DNA of 36,933 nt from a virus. The stretch covers positions 1 through 36,933 of IMG/VR virus record IMGVR_UViG_3300035138_000142; one strand, written 5' to 3'. The notes under the pieces are model-generated. The model ran no database searches. It was not told where the DNA came from and saw nothing but the letters and a program-made list of their open reading frames with translations. Below, piece by piece: positions 8,381 through 35,766 of this stretch (its first letter is position 1; every line of letters begins with the position of its first letter). The position numbers were made by a program, and so were the translations under genes.

Positions 8381-8431
8381 TCCCCTTTTCTGTAGGGGCA
8401 GTGCCTTGCGCCTGCCCTTAGGGGGTTGTTG
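8381..8431 (-). repeat. Composite element: a B-type GTAG hairpin occupying the first G-run position of an A-type element
   Basis: tccccttttc tgtaggggcagtgccttgcgcctgccc tta ggggg ttgtt. The stem GGGCAG/CTGCCC is perfect. Confidence 0.85.
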
Positions 8432-8445
8432 TACTTAACCTCAGC

Positions 8446-8703
8446 CTAAACCTTGACCTCAATTATTGAACAAACCCGGTGCTGTAAATCTTTCCTGGCC
8501 AGCGCTAGCTGTGTAGGTGTCGGCTTCTTGATAATATCATCCTTGAACATATCCTTGCCAAACATCCGTGTCTTTACAGCATTAATCCGTATCCACTTTT
8601 CTCCACCGCTTTTGTCTCCCTCCGGTAAGGGGGGATTAAGGGGTGTATTTTTACTTTTACGGTGGGACGACGCCCCCTGCCCCAACTCCTTTTTGTCTTC
8701 CAT
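8446..8703 (-). CDS. Hypothetical protein (85 aa) with an A-type element translated in frame
   Basis: ATG 8703 preceded by AAGGTGGA. Contains NTPLNPPLPEGD. Overlaps the upstream ORF by 47 nt. Confidence 0.55.
   Translation of the reverse strand: MEDKKELGQGASSHRKSKNTPLNPPLPEGDKSGGEKWIRINAVKTRMFGKDMFKDDIIKKPTPTQLALARKDLQHRVCSIIEVKV
8615..8648 (-). repeat. A-type palindromic element
   Basis: tctccctccggtaaggggggattaaggggtgta. It lies just downstream of the stop codon at 8657. Confidence 0.85.
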
Positions 8704-9154
8704 ATATTTCCACCTTTATATCTAAATGTGCTATTTCAAAAAATCCTTTTGTTCGCTGATATCCAGGGAACGGTGGTATGATTTCAGCATTATCAACATA
8801 AATTACATCCACCTTATTGCTTAAACCGGCACCGTAACCATCCTCCGGATTTTCATTTAATAGTTTTTGAATAATTAATGAAACAATCTGCTTCACCTCA
8901 TCATCAATAACAGAGATATCACCGCCATGGTGAACCACCTCAATAAGACCACGCAGTTCAATGAACTTGCCTTCCCCATTATCCGAATAACCGGTAAAAT
9001 GCGTTGCACACGCCGGCAACTCTGTTTTGCGGTACTTCTCAATATCACCTTTCAGTTTCACATGAAAATAATTAACCAAATCCGAAATATCCTCATCAGC
9101 AGATAACAGCGTATTAAGTTGAGATTCCACCTCATTAAACATATCATCAAGCAT
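8657..9154 (-). CDS. Hypothetical head-tail joining region protein (165 aa)
   Basis: ATG 9154 overlaps the upstream gene by 8 nt. Function is inferred from position only. Confidence 0.6.
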   Translation of the reverse strand: MLDDMFNEVESQLNTLLSADEDISDLVNYFHVKLKGDIEKYRKTELPACATHFTGYSDNGEGKFIELRGLIEVVHHGGDISVIDDEVKQIVSLIIQKLLNENPEDGYGAGLSNKVDVIYVDNAEIIPPFPGYQRTKGFFEIAHLDIKVEIYGRQKGVGAGGVVPP

Positions 9155-9656
9155 TGCCCAACCTCCTTATAGCCATATCACGTAAAACATCAATATCCTT
9201 AGGCTCCTCAAAAAACTGGTATGCTCGCATCCTGTGTTGATATCCCGCGTAATTCACCTTGGTATCCATCTCTATTTTAGATTTTGACATCCGCATAAAA
9301 GCCAGTGCAGCGCTTGAGAGCCGACCCGTATCCCTCATCAAATTAGATGAACGTGTCACTCGTTTGCCGGAATGACGTTTACGCCCTTTTACCAGGCCAT
9401 TGCCACGTACCTTGGGCACACCACCCTCAGCCGGCACAATAGTACCATCCTTGCGTGTGTACTGCCGTGCAAACCACATCCAGCCAACACCACGGAAACT
9501 GGTACCACCGCTTTTCAACCGTTCAAACATCAGTTGCACACGGCGCATCATGTACACGTGGAAATTGGTGAATACCGGCCGCATGTCCCGCAGCCTGCCC
9601 TTAGTATCTTTCAATGTCAGTTTTACCTGACTATCATCAACCTTAATCCTGATCAT
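9147..9656 (-). CDS. Putative virion morphogenesis / tail completion protein (Mu gpG-like)
   Basis: The N-terminal pattern (DSQVKLTLKDTKGRLRDMRPVFTNF..) and the position after the connector genes resemble the phage virion morphogenesis family. This is a by-eye call. Confidence 0.5.
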   Translation of the reverse strand: MIRIKVDDSQVKLTLKDTKGRLRDMRPVFTNFHVYMMRRVQLMFERLKSGGTSFRGVGWMWFARQYTRKDGTIVPAEGGVPKVRGNGLVKGRKRHSGKRVTRSSNLMRDTGRLSSAALAFMRMSKSKIEMDTKVNYAGYQHRMRAYQFFEEPKDIDVLRDMAIRRLGNA

Positions 9657-9723
9657 TTACCACTCCGCTATAAATTCAAAATTTGAAAGATCTATTAAAC
9701 ATGTCATTCCCCAGCGCATAGGT

Positions 9724-9775
9724 ACCCCCTTTATTGTAGGGGCTGGCCTTGTGCCTGCCCTTAGGGGATTGTTAT
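9724..9775 (-). repeat. Composite A/B element, intergenic
   Basis: accccctttat tgtaggggctggccttgtgcctgccc tta gggg attgtt. Confidence 0.85.
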
Positions 9776-9845
9776 TTTTCCCTTCTAAAATCGTTATTCC
9801 CTGTTCATTATTCGACATTCTTTTTTTCCTTCGCGTTTCTTCGCG

Positions 9846-10334
9846 TTAAGGACACAACGTATCCAATTCCTCATGATCAAACCTCGCTTTGGGATCCTCA
9901 TCATCCTCATAAGTTTCATCTTCATACGATTTCAAAGCAGTGCCTTTTATGTTGGATCCGGAAATCTCAACAGTTTTTTTACCGCTTTCAATGTCCTCCA
10001 AAATCTTCTCCGCCTTTTTTTCAAACAATACAGAATTCAGATCCTCATCCTCTTCCGAGCGGATCCCTTCCGCTACCTCGAGACGCAAGTATTGTAACGA
10101 CACTGCATAATAACGCGCAGCCTGTTCAATAATAGCCGGTGTAGCAGGATCACTGTCTATCTCCGGGAATTTCTGCGTACTGCTTTCATAGGAAAACGCA
10201 AAACGGGGACCTACACCGCTCTCCACCAAAGCACTGGCCGCGGCAATATCCGTGGTCGTGTTATTCGTAACCGCTTCCGGAAGATTTGACGGCAGATGCG
10301 CTAGTACTAATGATGATGTCGTATAAGTTGGCAT
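9846..10334 (-). CDS. Putative head-tail connector/adaptor protein (162 aa)
   Basis: TAATG overlap with the upstream gene. Position follows the capsid genes. Acidic C-terminus. Confidence 0.5.
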   Translation of the reverse strand: MPTYTTSSLVLAHLPSNLPEAVTNNTTTDIAAASALVESGVGPRFAFSYESSTQKFPEIDSDPATPAIIEQAARYYAVSLQYLRLEVAEGIRSEEDEDLNSVLFEKKAEKILEDIESGKKTVEISGSNIKGTALKSYEDETYEDDEDPKARFDHEELDTLCP

Positions 10335-10636
10335 TAAGCAATAACTCCCTCATTCCAGAGACGTTCCAGTTGTTTGTCATCCAGTTTCCCAAGGTTTACC
10401 CGCTTTTTACCGGCAGGAAGTCTCTCTCCCTGGTACTTCAGATCATGTACAATGTCGTATTCTTTTTTCTTTACAAAAGGACTTTGTACGGTTTGCGCCG
10501 GCTTTTTTGCTGATGCTGTTTCCAGTTGCATCACCCTTTTAGTTAATTCAGCTACTTCAGCCGCCAGTGTTGTAAAATTTTCAACCGTTACCTCAGCGTC
10601 CGCTTTTACATCCGGTTTATTTTTATCTTCCGACAT
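10334..10636 (-). CDS. Hypothetical protein (100 aa); start trimmed to the internal ATG
   Basis: ATG 10636 preceded by AATGGAGGAA. The longer track ORF (to 10726) merely reads through the repeat elements. Confidence 0.65.
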   Translation of the reverse strand: MSEDKNKPDVKADAEVTVENFTTLAAEVAELTKRVMQLETASAKKPAQTVQSPFVKKKEYDIVHDLKYQGERLPAGKKRVNLGKLDDKQLERLWNEGVIA

Positions 10637-10664
10637 TTTTTTCCTCCATTTTGCACCCCGATAA

Positions 10665-10696
10665 TTCCCCCTTAATAAAGGGGGATAGGGGTTGTT
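10665..10696 (-). repeat. A-type palindromic element (C5/G5), adjacent to a B-type copy
   Basis: ttcccccttaataaagggggataggggttgtt. Confidence 0.85.
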
Positions 10697-10698
10697 AT

Positions 10699-10724
10699 TG
10701 TAGGGGCTCGGCGTTGCCGCGCCC
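10699..10724 (-). repeat. B-type GTAG-headed GC-rich hairpin (REP-like)
   Basis: tgtaggggctcggcgttgccgcgccc: 9-bp stem with one mismatch and a GTT loop. Confidence 0.85.
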
Positions 10725-10731
10725 AATTAAT

Positions 10732-11097
10732 CTAATCCGTAGCGCTATACCCGTTACGAACAATCATATAATTATACTTATCCGTGCTGGCTGTGCATGT
10801 GTCCTCTGTAGTCACAAAAATTGTATCGCCCGCAGTGGCAATATCGTAGTAGAGTTCCCCTGTATTCGATGTCTTTCCGGTCAGAAAGACTAGACACAAA
10901 GTATCTACGTTTGAGATAACCAGTGTATCCAGCAAGCCCGTTGTGCCCCAGTCACGCTGCCCGACGAATTCCTCATCTTTACCGAATAGCCAACCCTTAA
11001 CCTTGAAATTATGTCCTTCGGTGTAAGATTTAACGGCGCCCACCGCTATGATCGCACAAAGCAGTATAAGTAATATTGTTGTTAATTTTTTACTCAT
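10732..11097 (-). CDS. Hypothetical signal-peptide or membrane-anchored protein (121 aa) inside the head module
   Basis: N-terminus reads MSKKLTTILLILLCAIIAVGAV. Confidence 0.65.
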   Translation of the reverse strand: MSKKLTTILLILLCAIIAVGAVKSYTEGHNFKVKGWLFGKDEEFVGQRDWGTTGLLDTLVISNVDTLCLVFLTGKTSNTGELYYDIATAGDTIFVTTEDTCTASTDKYNYMIVRNGYSATD

Positions 11098-11106
11098 AAT
11101 ATCCTC

Positions 11107-12051
11107 CTATGCTGCTACGTCACTGATCAGATAACCATTGGAAGTACTGATGTTTTTTACCTGGTAACTGCGTGTAACTTCATAACCAACCGTCTTTTCC
11201 CTGTCAAATGTTTCCACAACAGGATATCCCTTTTCTTCAATCACAACGGTATGCGGAGTAGTGCCTTCTACCAGTTCATCTTTCGACGGCGTATAGATCA
11301 ATGCAACCGAATCACCCCACAAGCGTGTAAAGACGCCTGCATCCGTAGAATAAATAGATCGACCTACAAAGATTTTTTCAAAATCAAGAAGATCAGCAAG
11401 AAGTTCAGGCGTTACTTTTGCTTTCATGGAATATTTTATTTTTTCAGTGATGGCCGGATGATTCTTTAATGTCCGGAATGCCTGGTATCCCATAACCAGT
11501 GTGTTCGGCTCTACGCCCATATCGGCCTGTGCCGCATCAATCCCCGTTTCAATATCTCCGATCGGGTCAGAATTGTCTACATCACTCCATTGATCGGTGC
11601 CGGTTAGTGTCGTCTTGTTTCCCGTAGCGTAGTAAGTTGCACCTAAAATTATATCTGCAATAGATTTTTCCAGTTCCCGCTCAATTAGATCCTGCACAAA
11701 TGTAACCGCCCGCTGTTCTAATTTTAGTACCTGTGCTGCGCCATATTTTTTTGCCTGTTCAATTTCTTTTTTCTTGTCAAGTTCAGTGCCGAGCGCATGT
11801 TCAGCGCAGGCGTAAGTGTCGCTGGAAATCGCAAAATCTACCTTGTTTGCATTGGTGCGTGGAGCGCGCTCCGTATTGTAAATCTTAAATCCCTCTTTGC
11901 CAAAACCAAAGATAGATCCTGTTTCAGTTAACGATTCAATGACCGGCGCTACCAGCCTGCCTATAAATCCTCTTTTGCCGCTATAACCCGTTGCAAACTG
12001 TGTTAAAATCGGGTTAGTAGAAGCAGCTATTGTTTTTGCTCTTGAAGCCAT
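11107..12051 (-). CDS. Major capsid protein (314 aa)
   Basis: Size and position after the protease/scaffold and decoration genes. GGAGGT upstream of ATG 12051. No search was run. Confidence 0.65.
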   Translation of the reverse strand: MASRAKTIAASTNPILTQFATGYSGKRGFIGRLVAPVIESLTETGSIFGFGKEGFKIYNTERAPRTNANKVDFAISSDTYACAEHALGTELDKKKEIEQAKKYGAAQVLKLEQRAVTFVQDLIERELEKSIADIILGATYYATGNKTTLTGTDQWSDVDNSDPIGDIETGIDAAQADMGVEPNTLVMGYQAFRTLKNHPAITEKIKYSMKAKVTPELLADLLDFEKIFVGRSIYSTDAGVFTRLWGDSVALIYTPSKDELVEGTTPHTVVIEEKGYPVVETFDREKTVGYEVTRSYQVKNISTSNGYLISDVAA

Positions 12052-12081
12052 AATTATTTAACCTCCATGTTATTTAATTCC

Positions 12082-12423
12082 CTATGTCAACATTACCCGC
12101 AAAAAGGTTCCATCCGTTGCAGCGTCCATAGCAACACCACAAATTTTAATCGCGTCATTGACATTGTCATAAGTCAGCGAAACCGCTTTTCCATCAGCGT
12201 CCATACTAACATAAGCGCCAGCCGCTATAGTACCGCCCGCCTCTACAACCGCAATACCAGAGCATTGCACAGTAATAGGGTCGCCGCTTGCAGTATCAAA
12301 AAGCGCAACACCTATTCCTCGGATATCTACAGTATGCGTACCATTTGCCGCGACAAAACGGTTTGCAGTAATTGCCTCAGCAGCAGTTACCGTGACCTTT
12401 GGTCCTAATTGATAAGATTTCAT
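12082..12423 (-). CDS. Head decoration-like protein (DUF2190-like, 113 aa)
   Basis: Small Gly/Ala/Val-rich beta-type sequence directly upstream of the capsid gene. Resemblance to the DUF2190 family was judged by eye. Confidence 0.55.
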   Translation of the reverse strand: MKSYQLGPKVTVTAAEAITANRFVAANGTHTVDIRGIGVALFDTASGDPITVQCSGIAVVEAGGTIAAGAYVSMDADGKAVSLTYDNVNDAIKICGVAMDAATDGTFLRVMLT

Positions 12424-12489
12424 TATTATTTCTCCTCAACTTTGTTTTTTATAAACTACAATTGAAATAACTTTCATTAATTAAGTCAC

Positions 12490-13779
12490 TCACTCTTTTT
12501 TATCTGCGAGTGCAAAGATATGTTTGGTGTACGCTTCCTGAAATTTCTCACCTTCTGTCTCTCCGGTTTCCTTAACAGCAAGTTTCACCGCCTGCTCATG
12601 AGATTTTTGTTTATCATCTGAATTACCAAAACTCTCCAGCGGATCTCCATTCTTGCCATCCTCAGATTCACCAAAAGAAACAAAAAGTTTACCTCCCTCA
12701 GCATACTCCACTATTTCCTCGATAAGCGACTGGAAAAACTCCATCTGTGATTTTTCCACCTCCTTACCCTCTTCCTGGAATTTTATGGTCTGTGTGCTGT
12801 CCACAGGGATACTTTCCATAAAAGGTACAACAAGCGAATCAACGATAGCCGGCACAACGCCCGACTTATCGCTGTATTTCTTTAATTTTTCAGCAAAGGA
12901 TGTAATGGCACTCTTGTGAGCGTTCTTTTTGGCTTTCTCCTGCTCTTCCTTATACTGCTTATTCTGAGCAATGGCCTCCTCCGGATACACCCCGTGCTCT
13001 TCCTTGAATTGTTCACGCTGTTCATCTTTAACAGCTTTCAATTCTTCCTCAGTGAATTTTTTTGACATTTTATTTTCCTCCTTGAAATTATTTGCCTCAT
13101 CACCAATTAGTTCTGTACTTTGAGTTAAAATCTCTTTTATTGCGGTTGATTTTTCATCATCCGATTTATCCGATTTCCCTAAAACGGCATAAACGAGATC
13201 AATTATTTTATATAATAGTTTTGTAGCCATGTTAACATTCTCATCCAGGTTTACGGCCGCTTCAACATTCACCTCTTGGAATTTTCCCTGTTCATCAACC
13301 GAAAATACAAACTGATCCACATCCTCATTTTGAGCAAACTCCATTGGTGGAAGTTTGTGGAAAGGTGCTGTCTTCCCTAATAATGCAAGCCCGCCGATCC
13401 GTGTATTATCATTTCGTGGAATCTCAACAGATCTATATGGATATTTCCTCTTTTTAAGACTCTGTTCAAAAAAATCAGGTTGCACTTTAATAATGTCTGT
13501 AATGAGATATTCACCCTCGAGTTTAAAATTATCCAAAAAACCTCTCGCAGCCTCATCCTCATCATTTAATACAACATCGTCACCACCATGCCTTACAAAT
13601 GCGGTAGGTAAATAGCCGGTATCATCTTTCATTTCTTGTTGTTTTGCAATAGTAGCCTGTGCCCATTCCTCATCATATTTTTTTCCACGGTGTTTACCTA
13701 AAACAAAGATCTCAACATCATGAATATTAATTGTTCCATCTTCATTTTCTGTAGTTTTATACTCTTTAAATAATTTCAT
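12490..13779 (-). CDS. Putative prohead protease / scaffolding protein
   Basis: Lies between the MuF-like and capsid genes. The C-terminal half is highly charged (E/K-rich) and scaffold-like. ATG 13779 follows AGAGGAA; the track start at 13806 is GTG. Confidence 0.5.
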   Translation of the reverse strand: MKLFKEYKTTENEDGTINIHDVEIFVLGKHRGKKYDEEWAQATIAKQQEMKDDTGYLPTAFVRHGGDDVVLNDEDEAARGFLDNFKLEGEYLITDIIKVQPDFFEQSLKKRKYPYRSVEIPRNDNTRIGGLALLGKTAPFHKLPPMEFAQNEDVDQFVFSVDEQGKFQEVNVEAAVNLDENVNMATKLLYKIIDLVYAVLGKSDKSDDEKSTAIKEILTQSTELIGDEANNFKEENKMSKKFTEEELKAVKDEQREQFKEEHGVYPEEAIAQNKQYKEEQEKAKKNAHKSAITSFAEKLKKYSDKSGVVPAIVDSLVVPFMESIPVDSTQTIKFQEEGKEVEKSQMEFFQSLIEEIVEYAEGGKLFVSFGESEDGKNGDPLESFGNSDDKQKSHEQAVKLAVKETGETEGEKFQEAYTKHIFALADKKE

Positions 13780-13812
13780 AACTAATTCCTCTATTTCATT
13801 AGGCACAAAACC

Positions 13813-13838
13813 TGTAGGGGCTGGCCTCGCGCCTGCCC
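13813..13838 (-). repeat. B-type GTAG-headed hairpin (REP-like)
   Basis: tgtaggggctggcctcgcgcctgccc. Confidence 0.85.
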
Positions 13839-13858
13839 GTTTCCAGGATATTTATTTC

Positions 13859-14146
13859 CTATAATATTGACATTATCCCTGTTATATAACCCAGCCCATT
13901 CATGACCATATCCTCAACACAACCGCGCAATGTCTGACCTTGCTTTTTGATTTGCCACCCTTCATAAATCAAGGCTATAATTAACAGCACCGCCGTATAA
14001 ACCTGCATCTGCCAGCACTCCATGGTCGTAACACCAATAAACTTGATATAATACACCGTACAGGTAACCACAATGAAGAAATGCCACGGTGCGCCCCAAT
14101 TCAGCCGCGTCCGGTACTCAAGCCATATATTAAATTCTTTCCACAT
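13859..14146 (-). CDS. Small multi-pass membrane protein (95 aa) flanked by two B-type elements
   Basis: About three hydrophobic segments. ATG 14146 preceded by GGGAG. Confidence 0.6.
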   Translation of the reverse strand: MWKEFNIWLEYRTRLNWGAPWHFFIVVTCTVYYIKFIGVTTMECWQMQVYTAVLLIIALIYEGWQIKKQGQTLRGCVEDMVMNGLGYITGIMSIL

Positions 14147-14157
14147 ATTTTTTCTCC

Positions 14158-14183
14158 CGTAGGGGCTCGGCGTTGCTGTGCCC
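14158..14183 (-). repeat. B-type GTAG-headed hairpin (REP-like)
   Basis: cgtaggggctcggcgttgctgtgccc. It starts 1 nt after the stop codon at 14185-14187. Confidence 0.85.
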
Positions 14184-14184
14184 T

Positions 14185-14961
14185 TTAATGAACAAACTCA
14201 AAATCCTTCCCTGTTAAACTCGGCCTCCAGCCGCTATCCTGTGCACCCTCATCCTTATGCACAGCCGATTTACTACAGCGGCAACCATGAGCCAGCGGGT
14301 AACGCATCCGGTTCCAGATAGGATCATTAACCGGAGCAGTAAAACCATTCAATTTTCCATGATCCTTCCGTTGCCTGCCATCCATAATCGTATGATGCTG
14401 CAAGAACGGAAACTCATTCGTATCCATTTCTCCGAATATCTTATCCTTACCCGCGTTCATAGCCTCCTGGGTGGCATTCCGGAAAACCGTATCCAGGTAA
14501 TAATCATTTGCCACAGTGATACCCTGTTTATCAAATAATAATTGTATATCTTTTTTCCAGTCATCCAGACTTATACCCTTTTCAATAGCGCTATCCAGTG
14601 ATTCCTTGACCTGTTTTATAATTGTTTCCTTTTCAGTAACCGCCAGGCTAAACGCCTGTTTCCTCATATCAGCAACCAGAGCCTTGAATTCATCCGATGT
14701 CACCACCTCTTTAGCCAGAAAAAAAGCCACCGCCTCATCATAAGCCGACGGGATACCCTCAGAAAAGACTTCTTTCCCCCCTGTAAAGGGGGGATTAAGA
14801 GGGGTGTTTTCTGCAAAATATTCCGCTCTTTTTCTGTTCAGGCTCTTTTGCGTCAAATACCTTCCTGTAAGATTGGCCAGCACCATAGCCTCCGCCAACG
14901 TCCTCGTTGGGGCGTGGTTTCCGCGCCCTCTGGCCAAATAATATTTCTTCATAACCTTCAT
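14185..14961 (-). CDS. Minor head protein, Mu F / SPP1 gp7-like, with an A-type element translated in frame
   Basis: C-terminal HHTIMDGRQRKDH...PLAHGCRCS motif. ATGA coupling to the portal stop. ENTPLNPPFTGGKE is inserted before the conserved domain. Confidence 0.8.
   Translation of the reverse strand: MKVMKKYYLARGRGNHAPTRTLAEAMVLANLTGRYLTQKSLNRKRAEYFAENTPLNPPFTGGKEVFSEGIPSAYDEAVAFFLAKEVVTSDEFKALVADMRKQAFSLAVTEKETIIKQVKESLDSAIEKGISLDDWKKDIQLLFDKQGITVANDYYLDTVFRNATQEAMNAGKDKIFGEMDTNEFPFLQHHTIMDGRQRKDHGKLNGFTAPVNDPIWNRMRYPLAHGCRCSKSAVHKDEGAQDSGWRPSLTGKDFEFVH
14774..14810 (-). repeat. A-type palindromic element inside the MuF-like CDS
   Basis: ttcccccctgtaaaggggggattaagaggggtgtt. Confidence 0.9.
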
Positions 14962-16409: not shown

Positions 16410-16416
16410 TTAGCAC

Positions 16417-17100: not shown

Positions 17101-17118
17101 AACAAAACTCCTCTATTT

Positions 17119-22856: not shown

Positions 22857-22858
22857 GG

Positions 22859-27381: not shown

Positions 27382-27463
27382 AAAGTTCTTAGTTTAAGTA
27401 GAAATGTCATTACATATATGATGTATAAAATTAGAATTGGCGATGGTTTAAGGATAGTCATTC

Positions 27464-28009: not shown

Positions 28010-28042
28010 AAAAAAAATAGACCTTCATTTTATGCAAGGTCT
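28010..28042 (-). terminator. Rho-independent terminator (minus strand)
   Basis: Minus strand reads AGACCTT-gcataaaatg-AAGGTCT followed by T8, 34 nt downstream of the stop at 28076. Confidence 0.7.
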
Positions 28043-28075
28043 GCTATTTCAGACAATGGCTGTCATAGCAACCCT

Positions 28076-28351: not shown

Positions 28352-28686
28352 TAGAATACACCCGCTATATGAAGTAATGTCACTGTACAACCGAATATCA
28401 AAGAAAACCCGATAGAATTAAAGATCTCTTTGCTTTTTTTATTCTTTGCCGGCCACCGCAGAAAGCCCACTCCTGTGGTAAATAAAGTCAATAATATTAT
28501 AATCGAGCCTGTATTCTGCCCTCGTTCAGTTATATAAAAAATCCAGGACAACCCGATCATTGATATCCACATAATAACCGTAGCCAGCGGTTTGTTTTGC
28601 CCCTTATCCCGAAATAAATGCGCAAAACAGTTGGCAAATAAAAAACATAAGATTGACATTATTAATAGATTAGGTATATTATCCAT
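28351..28686 (-). CDS. Multi-pass membrane protein (111 aa)
   Basis: Three to four hydrophobic segments. GGGAGAG upstream of ATG 28686. Confidence 0.65.
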   Translation of the reverse strand: MDNIPNLLIMSILCFLFANCFAHLFRDKGQNKPLATVIMWISMIGLSWIFYITERGQNTGSIIILLTLFTTGVGFLRWPAKNKKSKEIFNSIGFSLIFGCTVTLLHIAGVF

Positions 28687-28700
28687 AATATACTCTCCCT

Positions 28701-28853
28701 TTAATTAATATATTTTTTCTGTATTTTTTTTAATTGATCAAGTCTTATGGCGCATTTTCTGTACTTCTGTTTTGTATTGATGGAAACCTTCTCTAAAGTG
28801 ACAAGTTCGCATCTTAGACGTTGTATTTCCCTGCTTATCTCTTGAATACACAT
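28701..28853 (-). CDS. Small coiled-coil protein (50 aa)
   Basis: ATG 28853 lies 6 nt after GGAGG. Below the ORF-track size cutoff. Confidence 0.5.
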   Translation of the reverse strand: MCIQEISREIQRLRCELVTLEKVSINTKQKYRKCAIRLDQLKKIQKKYIN

Positions 28854-28866
28854 GACAAACCTCCGT

Positions 28867-29097
28867 TTAAATTATCTTATATTGACCGTTTTGTTTTAAA
28901 ATGGGATGAAAATTTGTTTTGAACATATGTTTCGCATGTGGAATGTTATTTGCTTCGATAAACACAACACCGTTATGGATGATTGGCTCGATGTACTCAG
29001 GAATTTTGTTTATCGTATTTTCAATTTTTTTACTGGCTTCATCCTTATTTGCCGCTTTCAGGATAAACTTGCCCTCAGCGCTTAATACAATGGTCAT
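28867..29097 (-). CDS. Hypothetical protein (76 aa)
   Basis: ATGA coupling to the upstream DUF5131-like gene. Confidence 0.6.
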   Translation of the reverse strand: MTIVLSAEGKFILKAANKDEASKKIENTINKIPEYIEPIIHNGVVFIEANNIPHAKHMFKTNFHPILKQNGQYKII

Positions 29098-29846
29098 TTA
29101 AGCCCCTCCGGATATTGTCTTATTCGCAGATTTTTCGGAAATTTGCGAAGATCTTTTTCACATTTACCGTTTATGTCCAGTTGTTTCACCCACACCGGCA
29201 CCCGTGCCTCTTTACACTCGTTTACAATATCCCGCACCCATTCAATCTTGCATGGCCGGCGCTTTGGTCCCGATTCACAGCCTACGATAACCCAGTTTAT
29301 TTTTGCTTGTCCATTTCCATATACATAATCATCTACTGCTCTTAATGAGATTGGTCCTAATAATGGCTCAAAACTGGCAAAGCGATTTATAACAGGTACA
29401 CCGAGCAAATCATTGATACGTTGATTAGCCATTTCCTGTTTTTCAGCCGATACACCAAAATAAGTGTTATGTAATGAATCCAATATTTCCAGTGGTGCAG
29501 AACGGATATTTTTAGGTCTTTTAGTCAGAATAAAATATGTATGATTATTTTGACAATATTGCAGTTGTTCAAAAATCCTTTCAAACCATATTTTATTATA
29601 ATCTTCAAAGCAAATATCATCATGAAATAGATCACTCATATTACAGACAAATATATTTTTATGTTGTTTCCATCTATCAATAGGCTCTCTAAGTCTTGCA
29701 CCATAGAATAATACCTGGTCAAAACTATGACTTTTTTCAAATCGGTTATGTATTGACTTAGCCCAGCAATTAATACAACCCTCAGACACCGGTGTGCAGC
29801 CTATAAATGGATTCCATGCCGCATCCCACCACTCACCATTTATCAT
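29094..29846 (-). CDS. Phage Gp37/Gp68 (DUF5131)-family protein
   Basis: The N-terminus W.AAWNPFIGCTPVSEGCINCWA matches the family hallmark (WNP..GC....GC..C). Confidence 0.75.
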   Translation of the reverse strand: MINGEWWDAAWNPFIGCTPVSEGCINCWAKSIHNRFEKSHSFDQVLFYGARLREPIDRWKQHKNIFVCNMSDLFHDDICFEDYNKIWFERIFEQLQYCQNNHTYFILTKRPKNIRSAPLEILDSLHNTYFGVSAEKQEMANQRINDLLGVPVINRFASFEPLLGPISLRAVDDYVYGNGQAKINWVIVGCESGPKRRPCKIEWVRDIVNECKEARVPVWVKQLDINGKCEKDLRKFPKNLRIRQYPEGLK

Positions 29847-29971
29847 GCAACCTCCTGAATACGATGTACTTTTTTGAATTCCTTTTTAACCTGGTTGCCT
29901 ATCTTAACTACCTTATACCAGGTATAAATAGCCAACGCCACGCCAATAATAAATAATATTTCCGCACTCAT
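29843..29971 (-). CDS. Tiny single-TM protein (42 aa)
   Basis: ATGA overlaps at both ends. Sequence begins MSAEILFIIGVALAIYTWYKVV. Confidence 0.45.
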   Translation of the reverse strand: MSAEILFIIGVALAIYTWYKVVKIGNQVKKEFKKVHRIQEVA

Positions 29972-30201
29972 GATGCCATCCTCACCACTTCATTAAATGT
30001 AAAATCGAGACATTCTTTAAGCTGTCGCACACCCATGCCACCCTTATTAAAATCTCTGAGCAGAAAATTAAACTTGTCAATCTGCTCATTTTTCAGTTTG
30101 ATGCCTTTTTGGTTGATCTGCTCCCAGGTATTCAGGAAAGCGCGTTTTGCCTCTTCTGCACCAAAGCGGCTCATATCAATAGTGCCTTGAATAATGTCCA
30201 T
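29968..30201 (-). CDS. Hypothetical protein (77 aa)
   Basis: ORF with ATG 30201, downstream of a palindrome-bearing non-coding region. Confidence 0.6.
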   Translation of the reverse strand: MDIIQGTIDMSRFGAEEAKRAFLNTWEQINQKGIKLKNEQIDKFNFLLRDFNKGGMGVRQLKECLDFTFNEVVRMAS

Positions 30202-30223
30202 AAAGTATACTCCTCTCGTTACA

Positions 30224-30242
30224 ACATACTTTGAAAGTATGT
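30224..30242. promoter_or_regulatory. Perfect 9-1-9 palindrome ACATACTTT-G-AAAGTATGT, a candidate operator
   Basis: Lies 23-41 nt upstream of ATG 30201. Related half-sites occur at 30202-30210, 30284-30292, 30447-30455 and 30480-30488. Confidence 0.5.
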
Positions 30243-30561
30243 TCTTGCTGTTTTAAAATGCTATTCGAGAGAAAATACGTTCGATATACTGTTGTGTATA
30301 AAGAGGTTAACTATAGAGCTTTTAAAGGAAATGTATTATATGTTATGTAACAAAAGTTTCCGCCTCTCAAAGGCGCTATTTTAATGATATCTAACACAAA
30401 TACAACCACTTAAACCTCTTTCGTGAAATTACACTCTCTTTGAACAATATACTTTTAATTGAGACAACAACATACCGAAACATACTTTCATTTAATTATT
30501 AAATCATCAGGCAATTTAAATATTCCAAGTTGCCCTCTTAAAGCATAGTATTTTTCCTGTT

Positions 30562-31200
30562 TCATATTTCGTGTTCCTTCATCCGTGGTATAAACTCACC
30601 CTTCCTTTTACGTTCATCAAGATAAACAGCGTAGTTAAACCCGGATCGTAACTGCTCGAATTGCTGCAAAGGCGTCTGCCACTTCCCTTTTATTTTATGC
30701 CAGATAAGATCCTTATAATAGTCGATGTTTAAACGCATCATTTGACCTTTATCGTCAATAATTTGAACATTATTGCGGAAAGTCTGAGGTTTGTAGCCAG
30801 TAATCTCGCTGAAATACTTATTATCAATCATAATCTCACGACGGTCTAGCTGTGCACGTAACTCATTGAAATTGTAATTAAGGCTTTCGATTTTCGATAG
30901 AATAATGTTAAAGTTATGATTGAAATTTGATGTAATTTCATTTAAACGGCTGTTTAGCATGTGATAAAAAGTTAAATGTTTATCCTTGGCAAGATTAATG
31001 ATCGTATTAAACCGTTCAACCTCATCAATTATCCAGGTGCAAAAGGCAAAATTTTCCTTTATCAATTTTTGTTGTTGAAGATGATTAGACAATTCCCATT
31101 TTTCCGGCAAAAGGATTCCCTGTTCAATAAATCTTTCAATATCGTTTACAGACAGCTCAAACCGTTCCTGCAGTGAAGCAAGGTTATAACGATAGATCAC
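30562..31200 (-). CDS. Hypothetical protein (212 aa), possibly with an N-terminal HTH
   Basis: GTG start overlapping the upstream stop (GTGA). LASLQERFELSVNDIERFIEQGIL is HTH-like by eye. Confidence 0.55.
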   Translation of the reverse strand: MIYRYNLASLQERFELSVNDIERFIEQGILLPEKWELSNHLQQQKLIKENFAFCTWIIDEVERFNTIINLAKDKHLTFYHMLNSRLNEITSNFNHNFNIILSKIESLNYNFNELRAQLDRREIMIDNKYFSEITGYKPQTFRNNVQIIDDKGQMMRLNIDYYKDLIWHKIKGKWQTPLQQFEQLRSGFNYAVYLDERKRKGEFIPRMKEHEI

Positions 31201-31361
31201 AATTTTACCTCGTAAAATTTTGATTTGAGCAGTAATTTTAGCCGTTCTTTCAAAGAAAGATTATCAAGAAATTCAATAATGTTTTTACGGATAAATTTCC
31301 TGTTTTTGCTGTACATCCGTTCACGTAATCTGCGTAATACCTTCTTCTTATAATTTTTCAT
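31197..31361 (-). CDS. Small basic protein (54 aa)
   Basis: ATG 31361 overlaps the stop of the preceding small ORF (ATGA). This start is preferred over the track start at 31403. Confidence 0.45.
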   Translation of the reverse strand: MKNYKKKVLRRLRERMYSKNRKFIRKNIIEFLDNLSLKERLKLLLKSKFYEVKL

Positions 31362-31525
31362 GACATCAATATCCAAAAGATAAGCAGCGCTCCGCTGAAA
31401 CATAAGAATATGAGCGCATTGTCACGAATGGACCTGAAGCGCTCCGCCCTAAGCAGCCACTCCTCATCGTACAGGATCGGCTTACGCTGCCTGTTTTTAT
31501 AATCCTTAATGATTTTATTTATCAC
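31358..31525 (-). CDS. Small protein with a C-terminal TM segment (55 aa)
   Basis: GTG 31525 lies 7 nt after GGAGG. C-terminus reads ALIFLCFSGALLIFWIL. Below the track cutoff. Confidence 0.4.
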   Translation of the reverse strand: MINKIIKDYKNRQRKPILYDEEWLLRAERFRSIRDNALIFLCFSGALLIFWILMS

Positions 31526-31922
31526 AGGAGTACCTCCATTCCTTTAATAAAGTTTCAAATTCCCGCCGCATCCTGGCAGCGGTTGATTCGCGGTATATAT
31601 GCTCGCGGCGCAGCTGCCGGGCATAGCCAAAGAGTTCGGACATTGCCGCCCAGTTATCATCAATTTGACCATCAGTTTTTAACGGTTTGCGATTATACAA
31701 ATGTGTAAAAAGAAGTTCGATTATTTCAGCCAGGTAAGGAGAAACAATCGCTCTGAAAAGCGGGTAATCCATATTTTTTTTAGGGCTCAGAAAATTATAA
31801 ACAGAGTCAACCGTAACCTCCTGGGCAATAGCCTCAGCCTTCGGGTTGTCTATAATACGGTTAAGATCAAGTTTGGCCTGGTCGGCAACCAGCTGAATTC
31901 TAGGACTGCGGTGATTAGACAT
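31515..31922 (-). CDS. Hypothetical early protein (135 aa)
   Basis: ORF in the early operon. Confidence 0.6.
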   Translation of the reverse strand: MSNHRSPRIQLVADQAKLDLNRIIDNPKAEAIAQEVTVDSVYNFLSPKKNMDYPLFRAIVSPYLAEIIELLFTHLYNRKPLKTDGQIDDNWAAMSELFGYARQLRREHIYRESTAARMRREFETLLKEWRYSCDK

Positions 31923-31925
31923 ACA

Positions 31926-32117
31926 TTATCCCTTATTTAAAATAAAACGATTGTTTTTATTATAAACAAACTTGCGGCATGGTTTGCACGATAAAAGAAT
32001 GTTACCGTCCTGCAGCCGGCAACGCGGATAAGGATCGCAAAAGAAGTAAGCGCAGAGTTTACAACTCTTCTTTTTAGATACCAGTGAAGCCGGGAATAAT
32101 TCCTCCTGGACTACCAT
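31926..32117 (-). CDS. Small Cys-rich protein (63 aa)
   Basis: CKLC...C....C....CKPC pattern. The ATG overlaps the upstream stop. Confidence 0.55.
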   Translation of the reverse strand: MVVQEELFPASLVSKKKSCKLCAYFFCDPYPRCRLQDGNILLSCKPCRKFVYNKNNRFILNKG

Positions 32118-32281
32118 ACCATTCTCCCGCAGGAGCGGTTAACGCAGACATACCCATATTCCCTGCAGTCAAAGAAAATGACGTCGTATTGCACCATAAC
32201 GCCCCGGCAGTCAGGGCAGTGTTCTACAATTAAAGTGGGCTTATTGTAGTGATTTTGTGAATGATTGTTATTATATTTCAT
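32111..32281 (-). CDS. Small zinc-ribbon-like protein (56 aa)
   Basis: ATG 32281. Sequence HCPDCRG...DCREYGYVCVNRSCG. Its stop overlaps the next ATG. Below the track cutoff. Confidence 0.45.
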   Translation of the reverse strand: MKYNNNHSQNHYNKPTLIVEHCPDCRGVMVQYDVIFFDCREYGYVCVNRSCGRMVW

Positions 32282-32305
32282 ATACAATGCCTTTTCTCAG
32301 GGCAT

Positions 32306-32346
32306 GGGCGGGGGCTGTTTCCCTGCAAAAGTCGCAGCCTCCGCCC
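32306..32346. other. Strong GC-rich hairpin (12-bp stem with one G-T pair) between the cro-like gene and the early genes
   Basis: GGGCGGGGGCTG-N17-CAGCCTCCGCCC. A T-rich run follows on the plus strand only. Confidence 0.7.
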
Positions 32347-32434
32347 TTATTATTCGTATTAATTATTTTAAAAAAAATGGCATAATATTTGATATTTGCT
32401 TACACGGCGTAAGTATGTTAAATTACCAGTCATG

Positions 32435-32650
32435 TTAATTAAGAATTATACTATTAAAAAACTTACGTAATTCAGGAATTTCTCTTTTAGTATACTGTAG
32501 AATTGCAAACTCAACACGGGGAGCCTTTAATTTACCGTTAGCCACCTGAGAGACACACTGCCCGGTAACATTAAGCAGTTTCCCGAATTGTTTATAATCA
32601 AGATCGTTAAACAGGAGTGCAAGTTTGAAAAGTTTTATATTGATATTCAT
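32435..32650 (-). CDS. Cro-like HTH regulator (71 aa)
   Basis: HTH segment YKQFGKLLNVTGQCVSQVANGK. Divergent from the cI-like gene. Confidence 0.7.
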   Translation of the reverse strand: MNINIKLFKLALLFNDLDYKQFGKLLNVTGQCVSQVANGKLKAPRVEFAILQYTKREIPELRKFFNSIILN

Positions 32651-32778
32651 TTTTATTTCCAGTTACTTTAGTTAATTACTTGGAGTAATATAATCCGAAA
32701 CGGTTAATAAGTCAAGTATTTTATAATCATAAACGGTTAATTTACTATATAATATTATTATAATGTATTGAAAATATT
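32651..32778. promoter_or_regulatory. Divergent promoter/operator region of the lysogeny switch
   Basis: 128-bp AT-rich spacer between the divergent HTH genes. The 11-bp direct repeat AAACGGTTAAT occurs at 32698-32708 and 32731-32741, 33 bp apart. TATAAT-like hexamers at 32748-32753 and 32759-32764. Confidence 0.6.
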
Positions 32779-33165
32779 ATGGATATAAGGCTAAAAAAAA
32801 TATTAAAAATAATAGGAATATCTCAAAAAAAATTTGCTCAAGACATCGGAATTCATCTTAATACTATCTCTAGGTATATTAGAGGTCTACAAGTACCGGA
32901 TTCTCATGTTTTAACAAAAATAGTACAGGTTTATAAAATAAATATTAATTGGCTTCTTACCGGCGAAGGTGATATGTTTATCCGGGAGGTATCACTCGAT
33001 GAAATAAAAAACATCGTCAACCTTTATGAAATAGCCGACGAGCGCGACCGTAAAATTGTCAATACCGTACTTGAAAAATATAAAAAAGAACCCGATATTA
33101 AATTATCAAAAGTAGCAGAGGAGAAATCAGACTATGAAACGAATAATAAAAATAATACTGATTAG
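32779..33165 (+). CDS. XRE/cI-like repressor (128 aa)
   Basis: N-terminal HTH: ISQKKFAQDIGIHLNTISRYIRG...NWLLTGEG. Confidence 0.8.
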   Translation: MDIRLKKILKIIGISQKKFAQDIGIHLNTISRYIRGLQVPDSHVLTKIVQVYKININWLLTGEGDMFIREVSLDEIKNIVNLYEIADERDRKIVNTVLEKYKKEPDIKLSKVAEEKSDYETNNKNNTD

Positions 33166-33595
33166 TTTTTGCATAATTCTCCTTTCCTGTGCCTCCCGTG
33201 AAGTATTTAAAATTGATAAGGAATTAACTCATCTTGAGGTAGATTTTAATAAATATATACAAAAAAATTTTATTTTTACTCCAAACGAATATAAAGGCAC
33301 TTACACACCGCTGGGAATTGTCCATTATAAATTGCGTGGAGGTGCTGAGTTGATTGAAATAGAAAAAAGACGAAGTACGCCTCTTGTATGGGTAAATGAA
33401 AATATACATCCCAATGATATATTTGTAACTGCCTATCAAAGAGCCTTGGAAATGGGTGCAGATGCTGTTATGCAACTAAAAATTCAATATGATATGGAAA
33501 AATATGCCACTGGGCATGGATTGGAAACAATCTATTTACCGGTAATAGAAATCTCCGGAGTGGCCATCAAACGCCAAAACCTCCTAAAACAATAA
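33134..33595 (+). CDS. Lipoprotein co-transcribed with the repressor (153 aa)
   Basis: Signal plus lipobox: MKRIIKIILISFCIILLSC. Overlaps the repressor gene by 32 nt. Confidence 0.7.
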   Translation: MKRIIKIILISFCIILLSCASREVFKIDKELTHLEVDFNKYIQKNFIFTPNEYKGTYTPLGIVHYKLRGGAELIEIEKRRSTPLVWVNENIHPNDIFVTAYQRALEMGADAVMQLKIQYDMEKYATGHGLETIYLPVIEISGVAIKRQNLLKQ

Positions 33596-33650
33596 ACCTG
33601 CCTAATCGATCATTACTAAATTTCCCACCTTATTTTCTCTCCAGAAAACG

Positions 33651-33671
33651 AATATTTGAATATCAAATATT
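33651..33671. terminator. AT-rich 9-bp inverted repeat between convergent genes, a possible bidirectional terminator
   Basis: AATATTTGA-ATA-TCAAATATT. Confidence 0.35.
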
Positions 33672-33736
33672 AAATCCCAAAATCGTACAAATTTGTTCTT
33701 TTGCTCGTCCATTATTTTCTCCTTTTGTTTTTTTGA

Positions 33737-34126
33737 TTAATTTTTAGCAATTCTTATTAAACGTGGTTGTTTAGGTGAAAAAAATTCAAAATAATTAACA
33801 AAATTAGTTAAGGCCATTTCAGATTTTCCGTTAATATTTACAGCAATTGCTCCTGCTCTAATATAGTTACTATAAAAACTGTAATTTGGCGAAAATAATG
33901 TATCGGTTTGAACATGAATTACGGTATCAATTAGCGTCATGTCAGATTGTATGAAAGTTGTAGTGTCATCATCTTGCCACCAATAAATTTCATAGTGCGT
34001 AACGTATTCTTGCGGCGAATTAGGTAAAAAACATACCTTAACATCTTTTGCTTCATTATCTGCAAACGATGAACATTGAACTAAAATAGCTGAAAGTAAA
34101 ACGAAAATTATCAATATTTTATACAT
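33737..34126 (-). CDS. Secreted or lipoprotein hypothetical protein (129 aa)
   Basis: N-terminus reads MYKILIIFVLLSAILVQCSS. Confidence 0.65.
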   Translation of the reverse strand: MYKILIIFVLLSAILVQCSSFADNEAKDVKVCFLPNSPQEYVTHYEIYWWQDDDTTTFIQSDMTLIDTVIHVQTDTLFSPNYSFYSNYIRAGAIAVNINGKSEMALTNFVNYFEFFSPKQPRLIRIAKN

Positions 34127-34133
34127 ACAAATC

Positions 34134-34535
34134 CTAATTTTTATGATCTAATATTTCATTACGAAATACTCTTATTATCGAAGGTTTCTTTTTTGTAAAG
34201 ATAATAAGAAAAGAATATTCCCCCAATGGTGCTTTCCAGATTTTCAATCTACTTACACAATTAGCTATACTATTTACGAATTTAATATTATCAATAGCAA
34301 TGACAGATTTTTTCAAATTGCTTAATCCAATTCGCCCTCCTGAACCTGTTCTGTATTTTGTTTCTTCATAATTAATTTCTATTGCTGACTTTCCTTCTAC
34401 AGATATTTCCAGCGAATCTTGTTCTATCTTCAAATGAACATAAATTGCATTATTATCGTTCGGTATAAGGTTTAAAGAATCTTGTGCATAGCAATTAAAT
34501 ATTAATGTTATAAAAAATACTATTATAAATTTCAT
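34134..34535 (-). CDS. Secreted hypothetical protein (133 aa); start trimmed
   Basis: ATG 34535 gives MKFIIVFFITLIFNCYAQ. GAGGGG upstream. Confidence 0.65.
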   Translation of the reverse strand: MKFIIVFFITLIFNCYAQDSLNLIPNDNNAIYVHLKIEQDSLEISVEGKSAIEINYEETKYRTGSGGRIGLSNLKKSVIAIDNIKFVNSIANCVSRLKIWKAPLGEYSFLIIFTKKKPSIIRVFRNEILDHKN

Positions 34536-34545
34536 ATTCCCCTCA

Positions 34546-35571
34546 TTAATTTCGTGTGACTGTAACTCCAACAGCAGCTAAACTATCGCATTCTGAAATA
34601 CCTTGTGCTGAAGGTGTGGAATTCGTACCGCCATCCATATATAACTGAGTTAAGCTGAAGCTAGGATCATGACGAATTACATAAAAATTATTAATTAATG
34701 AATCGATATCAGCCTGAGTCGTTATCGCATTATCGTTAATATAATAATGTACAATTGAAACAGATTGATTAACCGGTTCATAGTCAGTTAATGAGTTGTT
34801 ATGTAAATATAATCGAGTCAAATTTGTCAAATTACCTATTTCGCTAGGAATTGAACCGCTTAATGAGTTGTTATGTAAATATAAATATGCGAGACTAGTT
34901 AAATTGCCTAGTTCACTAGGAATTGAACCGCTTAATAAGTTGTCATGTAAATATAATCGAGTCAAATTTGTCAAATTACCTATTTCGCTAAGGATTGAAC
35001 CGCTTAATGAGTTGTCATATAAATATAAGTATGTAAGATTAATTAAATTGCCTATTTCGCTAGGAATTGAACCGCTTAATTGATTATATCTTAAACATAA
35101 GTATGTAAGATTAATTAAATTGCCTATTTCGCTAGGGATTGAACCGCTTAATTGATTGTTAGATAAATATAAGCATGTAAGATTAATTAAATTGCCTATT
35201 TCGCTAGGGATTGAACCAGTTAAATTACAATTAGATATGTTTAAACAACTTAATTTTTTATAATCTTTTGTAAATTTTAATTTATATGTTCCTGAAGTGC
35301 TATAAGTATGAGACAATGTCTGATTAGAACCTATCGTAGTTATAGTTGTATCTGCTCCATCACCCCATTCTAATCTGATAACATTTCCTGCGGCTGCATT
35401 TACTATAATTGATTCTGCCCCAGGAGTCGATTGATCTGTTTCAAATATTAATGTAGTATCGGTTGCGATTTCTTCTTGGACATAATTATTATATTTATTA
35501 AAACCGCTATAACCAGTTTGCCCAAAAAGTAAAATCGGAATAAATAATAAAATTAAAGCAATATATTTCAT
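34546..35571 (-). CDS. Secreted leucine-rich-repeat protein (seven 24-residue LRRs); start trimmed
   Basis: ATG 35571 gives MKYIALILLFIPILLFGQ. Repeats follow L..L..L.L..N.LSGSIPSEIGNL. Confidence 0.8.
   Translation of the reverse strand: MKYIALILLFIPILLFGQTGYSGFNKYNNYVQEEIATDTTLIFETDQSTPGAESIIVNAAAGNVIRLEWGDGADTTITTIGSNQTLSHTYSTSGTYKLKFTKDYKKLSCLNISNCNLTGSIPSEIGNLINLTCLYLSNNQLSGSIPSEIGNLINLTYLCLRYNQLSGSIPSEIGNLINLTYLYLYDNSLSGSILSEIGNLTNLTRLYLHDNLLSGSIPSELGNLTSLAYLYLHNNSLSGSIPSEIGNLTNLTRLYLHNNSLTDYEPVNQSVSIVHYYINDNAITTQADIDSLINNFYVIRHDPSFSLTQLYMDGGTNSTPSAQGISECDSLAAVGVTVTRN
34786..35253 (-). repeat. 72-bp in-frame tandem repeats (LRR units) with long near-identical DNA stretches
   Basis: gtaagattaattaaattgcctatttcgctagg recurs at 35033, 35105 and 35177, exactly 72 bp apart. 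Confidence 0.9.
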
Positions 35572-35720
35572 AGTATTTCCTTTTAATGTAATCCTATCCA
35601 ATCAGAAGTATTTTCAACGGTTGTCTACGGCCGGTTAACAAAATCCGGCCAGACCGGAAAACCTTTCCACCCCTCCTTACCAAAACAAATCGTACAAAAC
35701 AACAGTATAAAAAATATTAA

Positions 35721-35766
35721 TGTAGGGGCGCGACGCTGCCGTGCCCTATGGGGGGGGGTGTTTTTT
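35721..35766 (-). repeat. Composite element: B-type GTAG hairpin, then a G9 run, then TGTT
   Basis: tgtaggggcgcgacgctgccgtgccc tat ggggggggg tgtttttt. Confidence 0.85.

Follow-up and report, generated by a model that had tools for sequence, protein, structure and literature searches.

GTAG-headed hairpins in the late operon of a temperate phage are probably copies of a bacterial REP family

The IMG/VR record IMGVR_UViG_3300035138_000142 (positions 1-36,933; this 36.9-kb stretch is referred to below as the window) is the genome of a temperate phage, and between its late genes lie six short GC-rich hairpins headed by GTAG, here called B elements. How hairpins with the layout of repetitive extragenic palindromes (REPs) came to lie in a phage, and whether they serve it there, is the question raised by this locus. 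Our analysis indicates that the six are probably copies of a GTAG-tagged REP, mostly of its T.T subfamily, placed by a REP-associated tyrosine transposase (RAYT) encoded by a host. Their clade, recognised by a GTAGGGGC head and a GCCC tail, belongs to an already known class and is no novel type of element; the novelty lies in the setting, which is unusual, in that a phage carries several REP copies and some of these are nested within another repeat family. REPs are usually seen as marks of old, stable chromosomal DNA, whereas the phage copies show that they are also carried by mobile DNA, which bears on the spread of REPs and their transposases and on how identity over 25 nt is kept across phyla.

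Six hairpins between late genes

The pattern GTAGGGGC-N12-15-GCCC has six matches in the window, every one on the plus strand; in 100 dinucleotide-preserving shuffles the mean was 0.02 and the maximum 1. These are the six copies that an initial annotation of this DNA had listed, at the same coordinates and on the same strand. Either TGTAGGGGC or CGTAGGGGC is found at all six positions, the fifth copy having CGTAG in place of TGTAG. The elements measure 25-27 nt and are as follows:

8391-8417, plus strand: B1, TGTAGGGGCAGTGCCTTGCGCCTGCCC, a 27-nt variant
9735-9760, plus strand: B2, TGTAGGGGCTGGCCTTGTGCCTGCCC, T.T mismatch at the fifth pair
10699-10724, plus strand: B3, TGTAGGGGCTCGGCGTTGCCGCGCCC, T.C mismatch
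13813-13838, plus strand: B4, TGTAGGGGCTGGCCTCGCGCCTGCCC, T.T mismatch
14158-14183, plus strand: B5, CGTAGGGGCTCGGCGTTGCTGTGCCC, T.T mismatch plus a G.T wobble that pairs on the plus strand only
35721-35746, plus strand: B6, TGTAGGGGCGCGACGCTGCCGTGCCC, G.T at the mismatch position

Read on the plus strand, each copy consists of GTAG, an outer stem of 4 bp (GGGC/GCCC), one mismatch, an inner stem of 3-4 bp and a loop of 3-5 nt. The GTAG lies directly 5' of the stem in all six and is invariant in the family alignment described below. Folding the copies as single-stranded DNA (ssDNA) gives energies of -5.9 to -8.4 kcal/mol, z-scores of -1.1 to -3.5 and 7-8 pairs with one mismatch, close to the stems of 6-9 bp first proposed for them. 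The further claim that copies with differing interiors can still fold holds as well, in that the inner stems change on both sides in a compensatory manner, with GGC/GCC in copies 2 and 4 and CGGC/GCCG in copies 3 and 5.

Every copy is intergenic, with co-directional minus-strand genes on either side, and gene calls on an identical Logan contig from SRR11698124 agree with this placement. The upstream stop codon is 1-28 nt away in four of the six. B1 lies within the 97-nt spacer from an 85-aa gene (8446-8703) to the tube gene (7614-8348), B3 is 7 nt past the stop codon of a 121-aa gene (10732-11097), and B4 is within a 79-nt spacer from a 95-aa gene to the protease/scaffold gene. B5 occupies 26 of the 38 nt from the stop codon of the gene for a MuF-like head protein to the next start, with the ribosome-binding site GGGAG directly after it on the sense strand. 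B6 is found at the far end of the late operon, between a 372-aa repeat-containing gene and a leucine-rich repeat (LRR) gene. The long open reading frames (ORFs) running across B3 and B4 stem from alternative starts further upstream and are artefacts; gene callers produce such spuriously extended ORFs here because of the REP-bearing intergenic spacers.

A motif search and a Pfam scan of 71 ORFs detected no Y1/RAYT transposase gene in the window, as the initial annotation had also concluded. No window match to Rfam 15 reached the gathering thresholds, and nothing was found over any B body at E values up to 5; a weak sub-threshold match to RF02706 at 8313-8401 (22.8 bits vs a gathering threshold of 86, E = 0.059) reaches only the first 11 nt of B1. 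A blastn search of B2 against 50,697 phage records gave chance-level matches only (E of at least 0.6).

Two other sequences in the window resemble the B elements in part:

14910-14932, plus strand: GTTG-headed hairpin GTTGGGGCGTGGTTTCCGCGCCC in the 5' part of the MuF ORF, a possible degenerate seventh copy
20402-20447, no strand assigned: inverted ends GTAGGGG-N32-CCCCTAC, between the integrase gene and the next gene

The first is translated as RGRGNHAP, at a point where the window protein has 4 residues more than its homologues. It is possibly the decayed remnant of a seventh copy, but one headless hairpin of such a kind is within chance (0.45 expected per strand). The second had been described as a seventh sequence with such a head, but it shares only the head and ends with the B elements, its 32-nt interior is AT-rich, it forms no GC-rich hairpin and its fold is no better than that of shuffles (z = -1.1), and it was rejected. 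Its 7-nt inverted ends may relate to attP or may be a decayed head-to-head pair.

A family shared with bacteria and other phages

The same head and tail around differing self-complementary interiors were found in more than 300 places outside this phage. A degenerate pattern built from the window copies gave 84 matches at 70 viral-contig loci of 46-71% GC, where fewer than about one match would be expected by chance (an estimate from the information content of the pattern, not one computed by a tool). A second pattern detected 29 loci in species-representative genomes, belonging to Chloroflexi (Roseiflexus, Oscillochloris, Anaerolineaceae, SAR202 and ten contigs of one groundwater metagenome-assembled genome, or MAG), Planctomycetota, Nitrospirales, Acidobacteriota, one deltaproteobacterium and one Streptomyces. 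The family is multi-copy in several MAGs, being found on those ten contigs of one Chloroflexi MAG and on several contigs each of Roseiflexus and of one Planctomycetota MAG. A third pattern, limited to the T-class of the window, matched at least 120 metagenome loci of 32-72% GC, and identical elements are present also in contigs of 32-40% GC. The 25-mer of B2, GTAGGGGCTGGCCTTGTGCCTGCCC, is the commonest variant among the metagenome matches listed, where it was seen at least 39 times. The hairpins had originally been described as having a REP layout, and this description is borne out by the many bacterial genomes and metagenome contigs in which an identical 8-nt head and 4-nt tail recur; similar repeats were indeed recovered in several phyla and in other phage contigs by the pattern searches.

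The hairpin appears to be under selection, as the initial annotation had suggested, because covariation of the stem is strong and the head GTAGGGGC and tail GCCC are invariant. Covariation was assessed in part on other GTAGGGGC...GCCC elements inside the loci, whose interiors were not fixed by the search patterns; in a first set of 46 distinct interiors, Watson-Crick pairs make up 85% of stem positions vs 32% after shuffling. The pairs GC, CG, AT and TA are all found at the same stem positions there. In alignment A2 (26 sequences) 95.7% of cells pair, and double-sided changes number 31 vs 12.9 expected, a value reached by none of 500 shuffles; sliding the partner column lowers pairing to 35-55%. 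A neutral scan of viral contigs with GTAGGGGCT-N11-TGCCC was left out of the covariation analysis because chance matches dominated it, 63 of the 117 matches listed being without the inner pair. In the unconstrained interiors G.T exceeds A.C by 9:2, and by 3:0 in a stricter set; with few informative pairs, this weakly favours the GTAG strand as the folded strand.

Elsewhere in the family the elements are arranged as REPs typically are, in inverted pairs (L057, L077, L088, L248 and L264-L267), in tandem clusters (L084, L096 and L099) and, in L308, in an alternating-orientation cluster of two subfamilies laid out as in bacterial interspersed mosaic elements (BIMEs), consistent with the REP-like behaviour originally supposed. 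The L308 cluster (9819-10015, on a 39% GC contig) consists of four elements at a spacing of about 52-68 nt, of a T.T type identical to B2 and an A-T type, GTAGGGGCAACCCTTGTGGTTGCCC. Some family copies lie inside genes, an example being the endolysin linker in L067. In this 62% GC phage contig, GTAGGGGCGGGGCTCTGCTCCGCCC at 8703-8727 is part of an endolysin-like ORF, where it supplies the linker GGAEPRPYEKDGE before a Cpl-7-like motif, and an inverted copy about 5 kb away (3589-3613) is upstream of a holin-like gene. The same pair is present in L040, and single copies in about 20 other contigs.

The flanks of the elements have no conserved sequence except a pyrimidine at -1, and no target-site duplication was detected in 345 instances, flank identity over 2-6 nt being no higher than in permuted controls. 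Of 23 cases in other low-GC viral contigs, 15 have the GTAG strand antisense to the genes beside it and eight have it sense. These contigs are phage-like, L030 encoding MuA and MuB, L015 a portal and MuF, and L066 tail and neck proteins. In L030 (IMGVR_UViG_3300014204_007107), a Mu-like contig with 47% GC, a total of nine GTAGGGGC elements from three subfamilies lie within 10.9 kb on both strands, some of them within predicted ORFs.

A transposase linked to the family was found in metagenome contig L272 (WNGP01001194.1). Its gene at about 8919-9395 scores 27.6 bits against Pfam Y1_Tnp (cut-off 23), and its best NCBIfam match is the REP-associated tyrosine transposase (E = 2.4e-16, below the equivalog cut-off), with an E value of 4.9e-4 for the IS200 model. 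The gene is flanked by GTAGGGGCTGGGCTTGCCCCTGCCC, a variant of the T.T subfamily, with two copies upstream and several downstream (8786-9700), some of them degenerate with the head GTAC. Judged from its sequence, this arrangement appears to be a REPtron, a RAYT-like gene between its T.T-subfamily copies, which agrees with the kinship to RAYT-mobilised repeats proposed initially. A sequence-level comparison with the PDB found no match for the L272 transposase. Two other RAYT-like genes were considered as cognates and rejected: the element does not flank the ORF in L101 (Roseiflexus), and the gene in L233 is flanked by a different palindrome. The L233 gene (within 1-830; Y1_Tnp E = 3e-11) lies between copies of CCTGCAGGGCCAGGCCCTGCAGG, with a GTAGGGGC element 10 kb away on the same contig.

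The known class to which these elements correspond most closely is the GTAG-tagged REP superfamily, repeats of which have been described in Chloroflexi, the Planctomycetes-Verrucomicrobia-Chlamydiae (PVC) group and Cyanobacteria and include G.T pairs, intragenic copies, dimers or clusters and, in some GTAG families, singletons (Di Nocera, De Gregorio and Rocco 2013, PMC3733652). Shared with that class are an unpaired GTAG at one end of a GC-rich stem-loop of 20-40 nt with 6-9 pairs and a short loop, subfamilies set apart by complementary changes in the stem, G.T pairing on the GTAG strand, a position downstream of coding regions among unidirectional genes, occasional intragenic copies, and clusters or dimers elsewhere in the family. 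The Chloroflexi family GTAG-23 is known from Thermomicrobium roseum and Roseiflexus castenholzii, and its intragenic copies in Roseiflexus encode peptides such as AGLRPAP (PMC3733652). Peptides of this type back-translate to GCCCCGCCCCT..., consistent with the GTAGGGGC head, and the Roseiflexus MAG matches in our genome scan are a further likeness. From such sequence comparison we infer that the window elements may be identical with GTAG-23. Unlike GTAG-23, the window copies lie in a phage as one-orientation singletons, at 40% GC and in a replicon without a RAYT.

The REP/BIME and TnpAREP system of Escherichia coli (RAYT group 2; Ton-Hoang 2012, PMC3333891; Messing 2012, PMC3479197; Corneloup 2021, PMC8266576) likewise has GTAG 5' of an imperfect palindrome, one strand as substrate, no target-site duplication and a REP-flanked RAYT, as in L272 here. 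The TnpAREP proteins of E. coli, Stenotrophomonas and Marinomonas act in vitro on the single-stranded GTAG strand only and require GTAG, and cleavage by the E. coli enzyme requires an irregularity in the stem, a bulge (Corneloup 2021, PMC8266576). The window elements have in its place a fixed mismatch (T.T, T.C or G.T) where the fifth pair would be, and this fits the need of the E. coli enzyme for an irregularity (PMC8266576). They differ from the E. coli REPs in the sequences of stem and loop, in having a shorter unit (25 nt) and in their spread over several phyla vs one genus, and they are known here from sequence. The REPINs (REP doublets forming hairpins) of Pseudomonas fluorescens are short palindromes whose presumed mobilisation is attributed to a single-copy RAYT acting in trans (Bertels and Rainey 2011, PMC3116915); inverted doublets comparable to these are found in family members L057, L248 and L264-L267, whereas the window has no doublets. 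The sub-terminal hairpins of IS200/IS605 elements also share features with the B elements, namely an ssDNA hairpin, a 5' guide tetranucleotide, a Y1 HUH enzyme as the recognising protein and the absence of target duplication, but the B element is an isolated 25-nt hairpin, with no transposase or tnpB between paired ends. A classical miniature inverted-repeat transposable element was rejected as a description, the unit being a single 25-nt hairpin with no target-site duplication.

Related phages and the A-type repeats

No B element was found in ten contigs of related phages (nine relatives) that share the late-gene order; the comparison covered L002-L005, L105, L106, L227/L228 and L349-L351, with portals 45-65% identical to that of the window. 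Several of these relatives have nearly no intergenic space at the corresponding junctions. At the B2 junction the closest informative relative, L002, carries a plain A-type element (described below), and in alignment with it B2 shows up as 18 inserted nt that separate the first C-run and TAA from the second C-run. The B3 junction in L002 likewise has an A-type element only. The window copies thus appear to be non-autonomous acquisitions, since the phage has no RAYT and its relatives lack the element, and the original suggestion of non-autonomy is supported on both counts.

The A-type element reads, on the plus strand, C-run, loop, G-run, TAA, G-run, TGTT, and is present in about ten copies, all in the late operon. 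These C-run/G-run hairpins are a second repeat family in that operon. Two copies are of particular relevance here:

10664-10696, plus strand: A-type element (C-run, loop, G-run, TA, G-run, TTGTT), complete and adjoining B3
14772-14812, plus strand: A-type element in frame within the MuF ORF (14185-14961)

The copy in the MuF gene encodes an insertion that starts NTPLNPPFTGGKE and comprises 15 aa relative to the longest homologue and up to 18 relative to others. Five MuF homologues are without this insertion, and the A family therefore also behaves as inserted, probably mobile, DNA.

Three B copies had been described as nested in A-type elements. This is correct for the first two, which are surrounded by the full frame of C-run, T-rich stretch, B, TTA, G-run and TTGTT: B1 has a C-run at 8382-8385 and TTAGGGGGTTGTT at 8418-8430, and B2 has CCCCC at 9725-9729 and TTAGGGGATTGTT at 9761-9773. 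The third, B6, has the downstream half-frame only (TAT, G9, TGTT), and B4 and B5 have no A-type context. Among 349 family instances elsewhere, an upstream C-run or a downstream G-run accompanies the element in 5-7%, no more often than the reverse arrangement, and the A frame is thus not part of the B unit. A search of viral contigs for the composite A+B pattern found one unrelated locus only.

Similar A elements are present in L002 and in three contigs of one sample. The related prophage of L227 and L228, which has 55% identity to the window in portal and primase, has a repeat family of its own, GCACACACCCCTAA-CCCCTCTCAAGAGGGG, copies of which follow many late genes (L227 10615-10975 and 13988; L228 12336-19634). 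Three copies of this family are within the prophage primase gene (1054 aa vs 999 aa in the window); its architecture is that of the window A-type element, with a different hairpin sequence. In the Roseiflexus MAG contig L101, a C6-TG-C6-GCA-G10 hairpin at 453-481, beside the RAYT-like ORF, resembles the sense-strand architecture of the A-type element.

The relatives also provide some information on hosts. L227 (37% GC) is the only relative found inside a long bacterial contig, where it is flanked by a gene for leucyl-tRNA synthetase whose named relatives are all from Calditrichota (60-66% identity). This suggests, by sequence, a Calditrichota-like host for the phage lineage. The L227 prophage in this Calditrichota-like contig contains no B elements. 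Look-ups of portal-homologue clusters returned "[bacterium]" only, and the host of the window was not identified by genome scan, cluster look-ups or prophage context.

Origin of the copies and competing explanations

Taken together, these results are best explained by placement in trans. We infer that a host-encoded RAYT placed the copies in the phage genome, where, by analogy with TnpAREP in vitro (PMC8266576), it would act on the folded GTAG strand as ssDNA, probably during lysogeny or replication in a REP-rich host. Copies would have survived only in the spacers of the co-directional late operon, where they are harmless. Their transcription would yield GGGC...GCCCCUAC stem-loops a short way downstream of stop codons, and they may secondarily affect the stability of upstream mRNA, as bacterial REPs do. 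The copies look like tolerated passengers, perhaps with mild effects at the RNA level.

Several observations weigh against this explanation. Host searches tied no REP-rich host genome with a cognate RAYT to the phage, and the RAYT link comes from one locus among about 2.5 Mb examined. The genome scan with the window variants returned only organisms of 51-73% GC. Prophages have been reported as REP deserts (PMC3390384). The window copies are all singletons in one orientation, not the inverted dimers or alternating clusters of REPINs and BIMEs, of which the inverted dimer is thought to be the mobile unit. Finally, all A-type and B elements are confined to the late part of the genome; this could reflect tolerance there, but it could also mean selection for late expression or import of a module from another phage.

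The identity of 25-mers across very different genomes hints at horizontal spread. A broader proposal, which we put forward tentatively and regard as doubtful on present evidence, is that the GTAGGGGC...GCCC elements make up one REP clade that passes between distant phyla, carried by temperate and Mu-like phages. REPIN-RAYT systems have been described as vertically inherited within lineages, and this vertical, lineage-specific view is hard to reconcile with the present family because identical 25-mers occur at 32-72% GC and in unrelated phages. If the proposal is true, a phage bearing six or seven copies could introduce them to a new host, where a compatible RAYT would go on to multiply them. 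On the same reading, the A-type mini-palindromes, an unrelated family, have colonised the late operon too, even in frame within the MuF gene, and B elements have inserted into copies of theirs. For uncultured phages, the T.T subfamily together with its RAYT could also provide a host-linking marker.

The alternative that survives best, which we nevertheless consider unlikely, is that the late module was imported with its A and B elements already in place from a phage of a higher-GC, REP-rich host, in which case the elements would be uninformative on the present host. The late region has a GC content of 43-45% (window 1-18800) vs 31-37% in the early and lysogeny region (19000-34000), a contrast compatible with a mosaic origin of the genome, and every A and B element is in the late region. 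Relatives with the same late module, however, lack B elements at any GC content, and the presence of identical elements in contigs of 32-40% GC also speaks against import. Import is compatible with placement by a host RAYT because it shifts the place of insertion and not the nature of the element.

It is rather improbable that the hairpins are cis-acting RNA elements kept for the late operon, with roles in 3' protection, RNase processing or the tuning of translation, their resemblance to REPs being secondary or the elements having been co-opted after insertion. The six do all lie in the long late transcript, in the same orientation, between co-directional genes and mostly close to an upstream stop codon, while the early and lysogeny region has none; B5 fits exactly between a stop codon and the next ribosome-binding site, the antisense excess of the GTAG strand extends to other low-GC viral contigs, and bacterial REPs are known to stabilise upstream mRNA (PMC3733652). 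Yet nine relatives that share this gene order, in several of which the genes are tightly packed, do without the elements, other phages have them in both orientations and in some cases within genes, and identical 25-mers are found in unrelated organisms. In addition, B5 folds poorly as sense RNA because its G.T wobble turns into an A.C mismatch, giving a fold no better than shuffles (z = -0.13).

We consider it very improbable that the hairpins are recognition sites for a phage enzyme (HNH, integrase or packaging) or hot spots for the shuffling of late-gene modules. The window does encode an HNH_3 endonuclease and a tyrosine integrase, the head-like inverted pair at 20402-20447 adjoins the integrase gene, and the elements mark gene boundaries, but the same elements are found in bacterial chromosomes and in unrelated phages without these proteins, and L227 has the same integrase and HNH genes without such elements. 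Least probable of all, and rejected, is a role as intrinsic terminators or attenuators within the late operon: although the hairpins are GC-rich intergenic stem-loops and B6 has a T-rich stretch about 10 nt downstream on the sense strand, the stems are short and broken by a mismatch, they are followed on the sense strand by CUAC and mixed sequence with no U-tract, and a terminator scan called no B hairpin, a nearby call at 8414-8426 (plus strand) pairing the last bases of B1 with the adjacent A-type G-run.

The remainder of the window is in keeping with a temperate phage. Nearly every gene is on the minus strand, and the whole genome has a GC content of 40%. The main genes with assigned positions are the following:

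7614-8348: tube protein
11107-12051: E-type capsid protein
14185-14961: MuF-like head protein
14958-16409: Mu-type portal
20743-21723: tyrosine integrase
24382-27381: primase, 999 aa

A protease/scaffold, a cement protein, an LRR protein, the HNH endonuclease (HNH_3) and a CI-like repressor are also encoded. A tRNA search of the window found none, and megablast with 24 kb of the window found no DNA-level similarity to GenBank phages. Repeats of 78 nt are common to both window ends (21-149 and 36804-36932, 92% identity over 129 nt), so that the genome is probably circularly permuted and the gene at 35798-36916 probably runs across the junction of the circular genome. The LRR gene contains six 72-nt tandem repeats (34716-35291).

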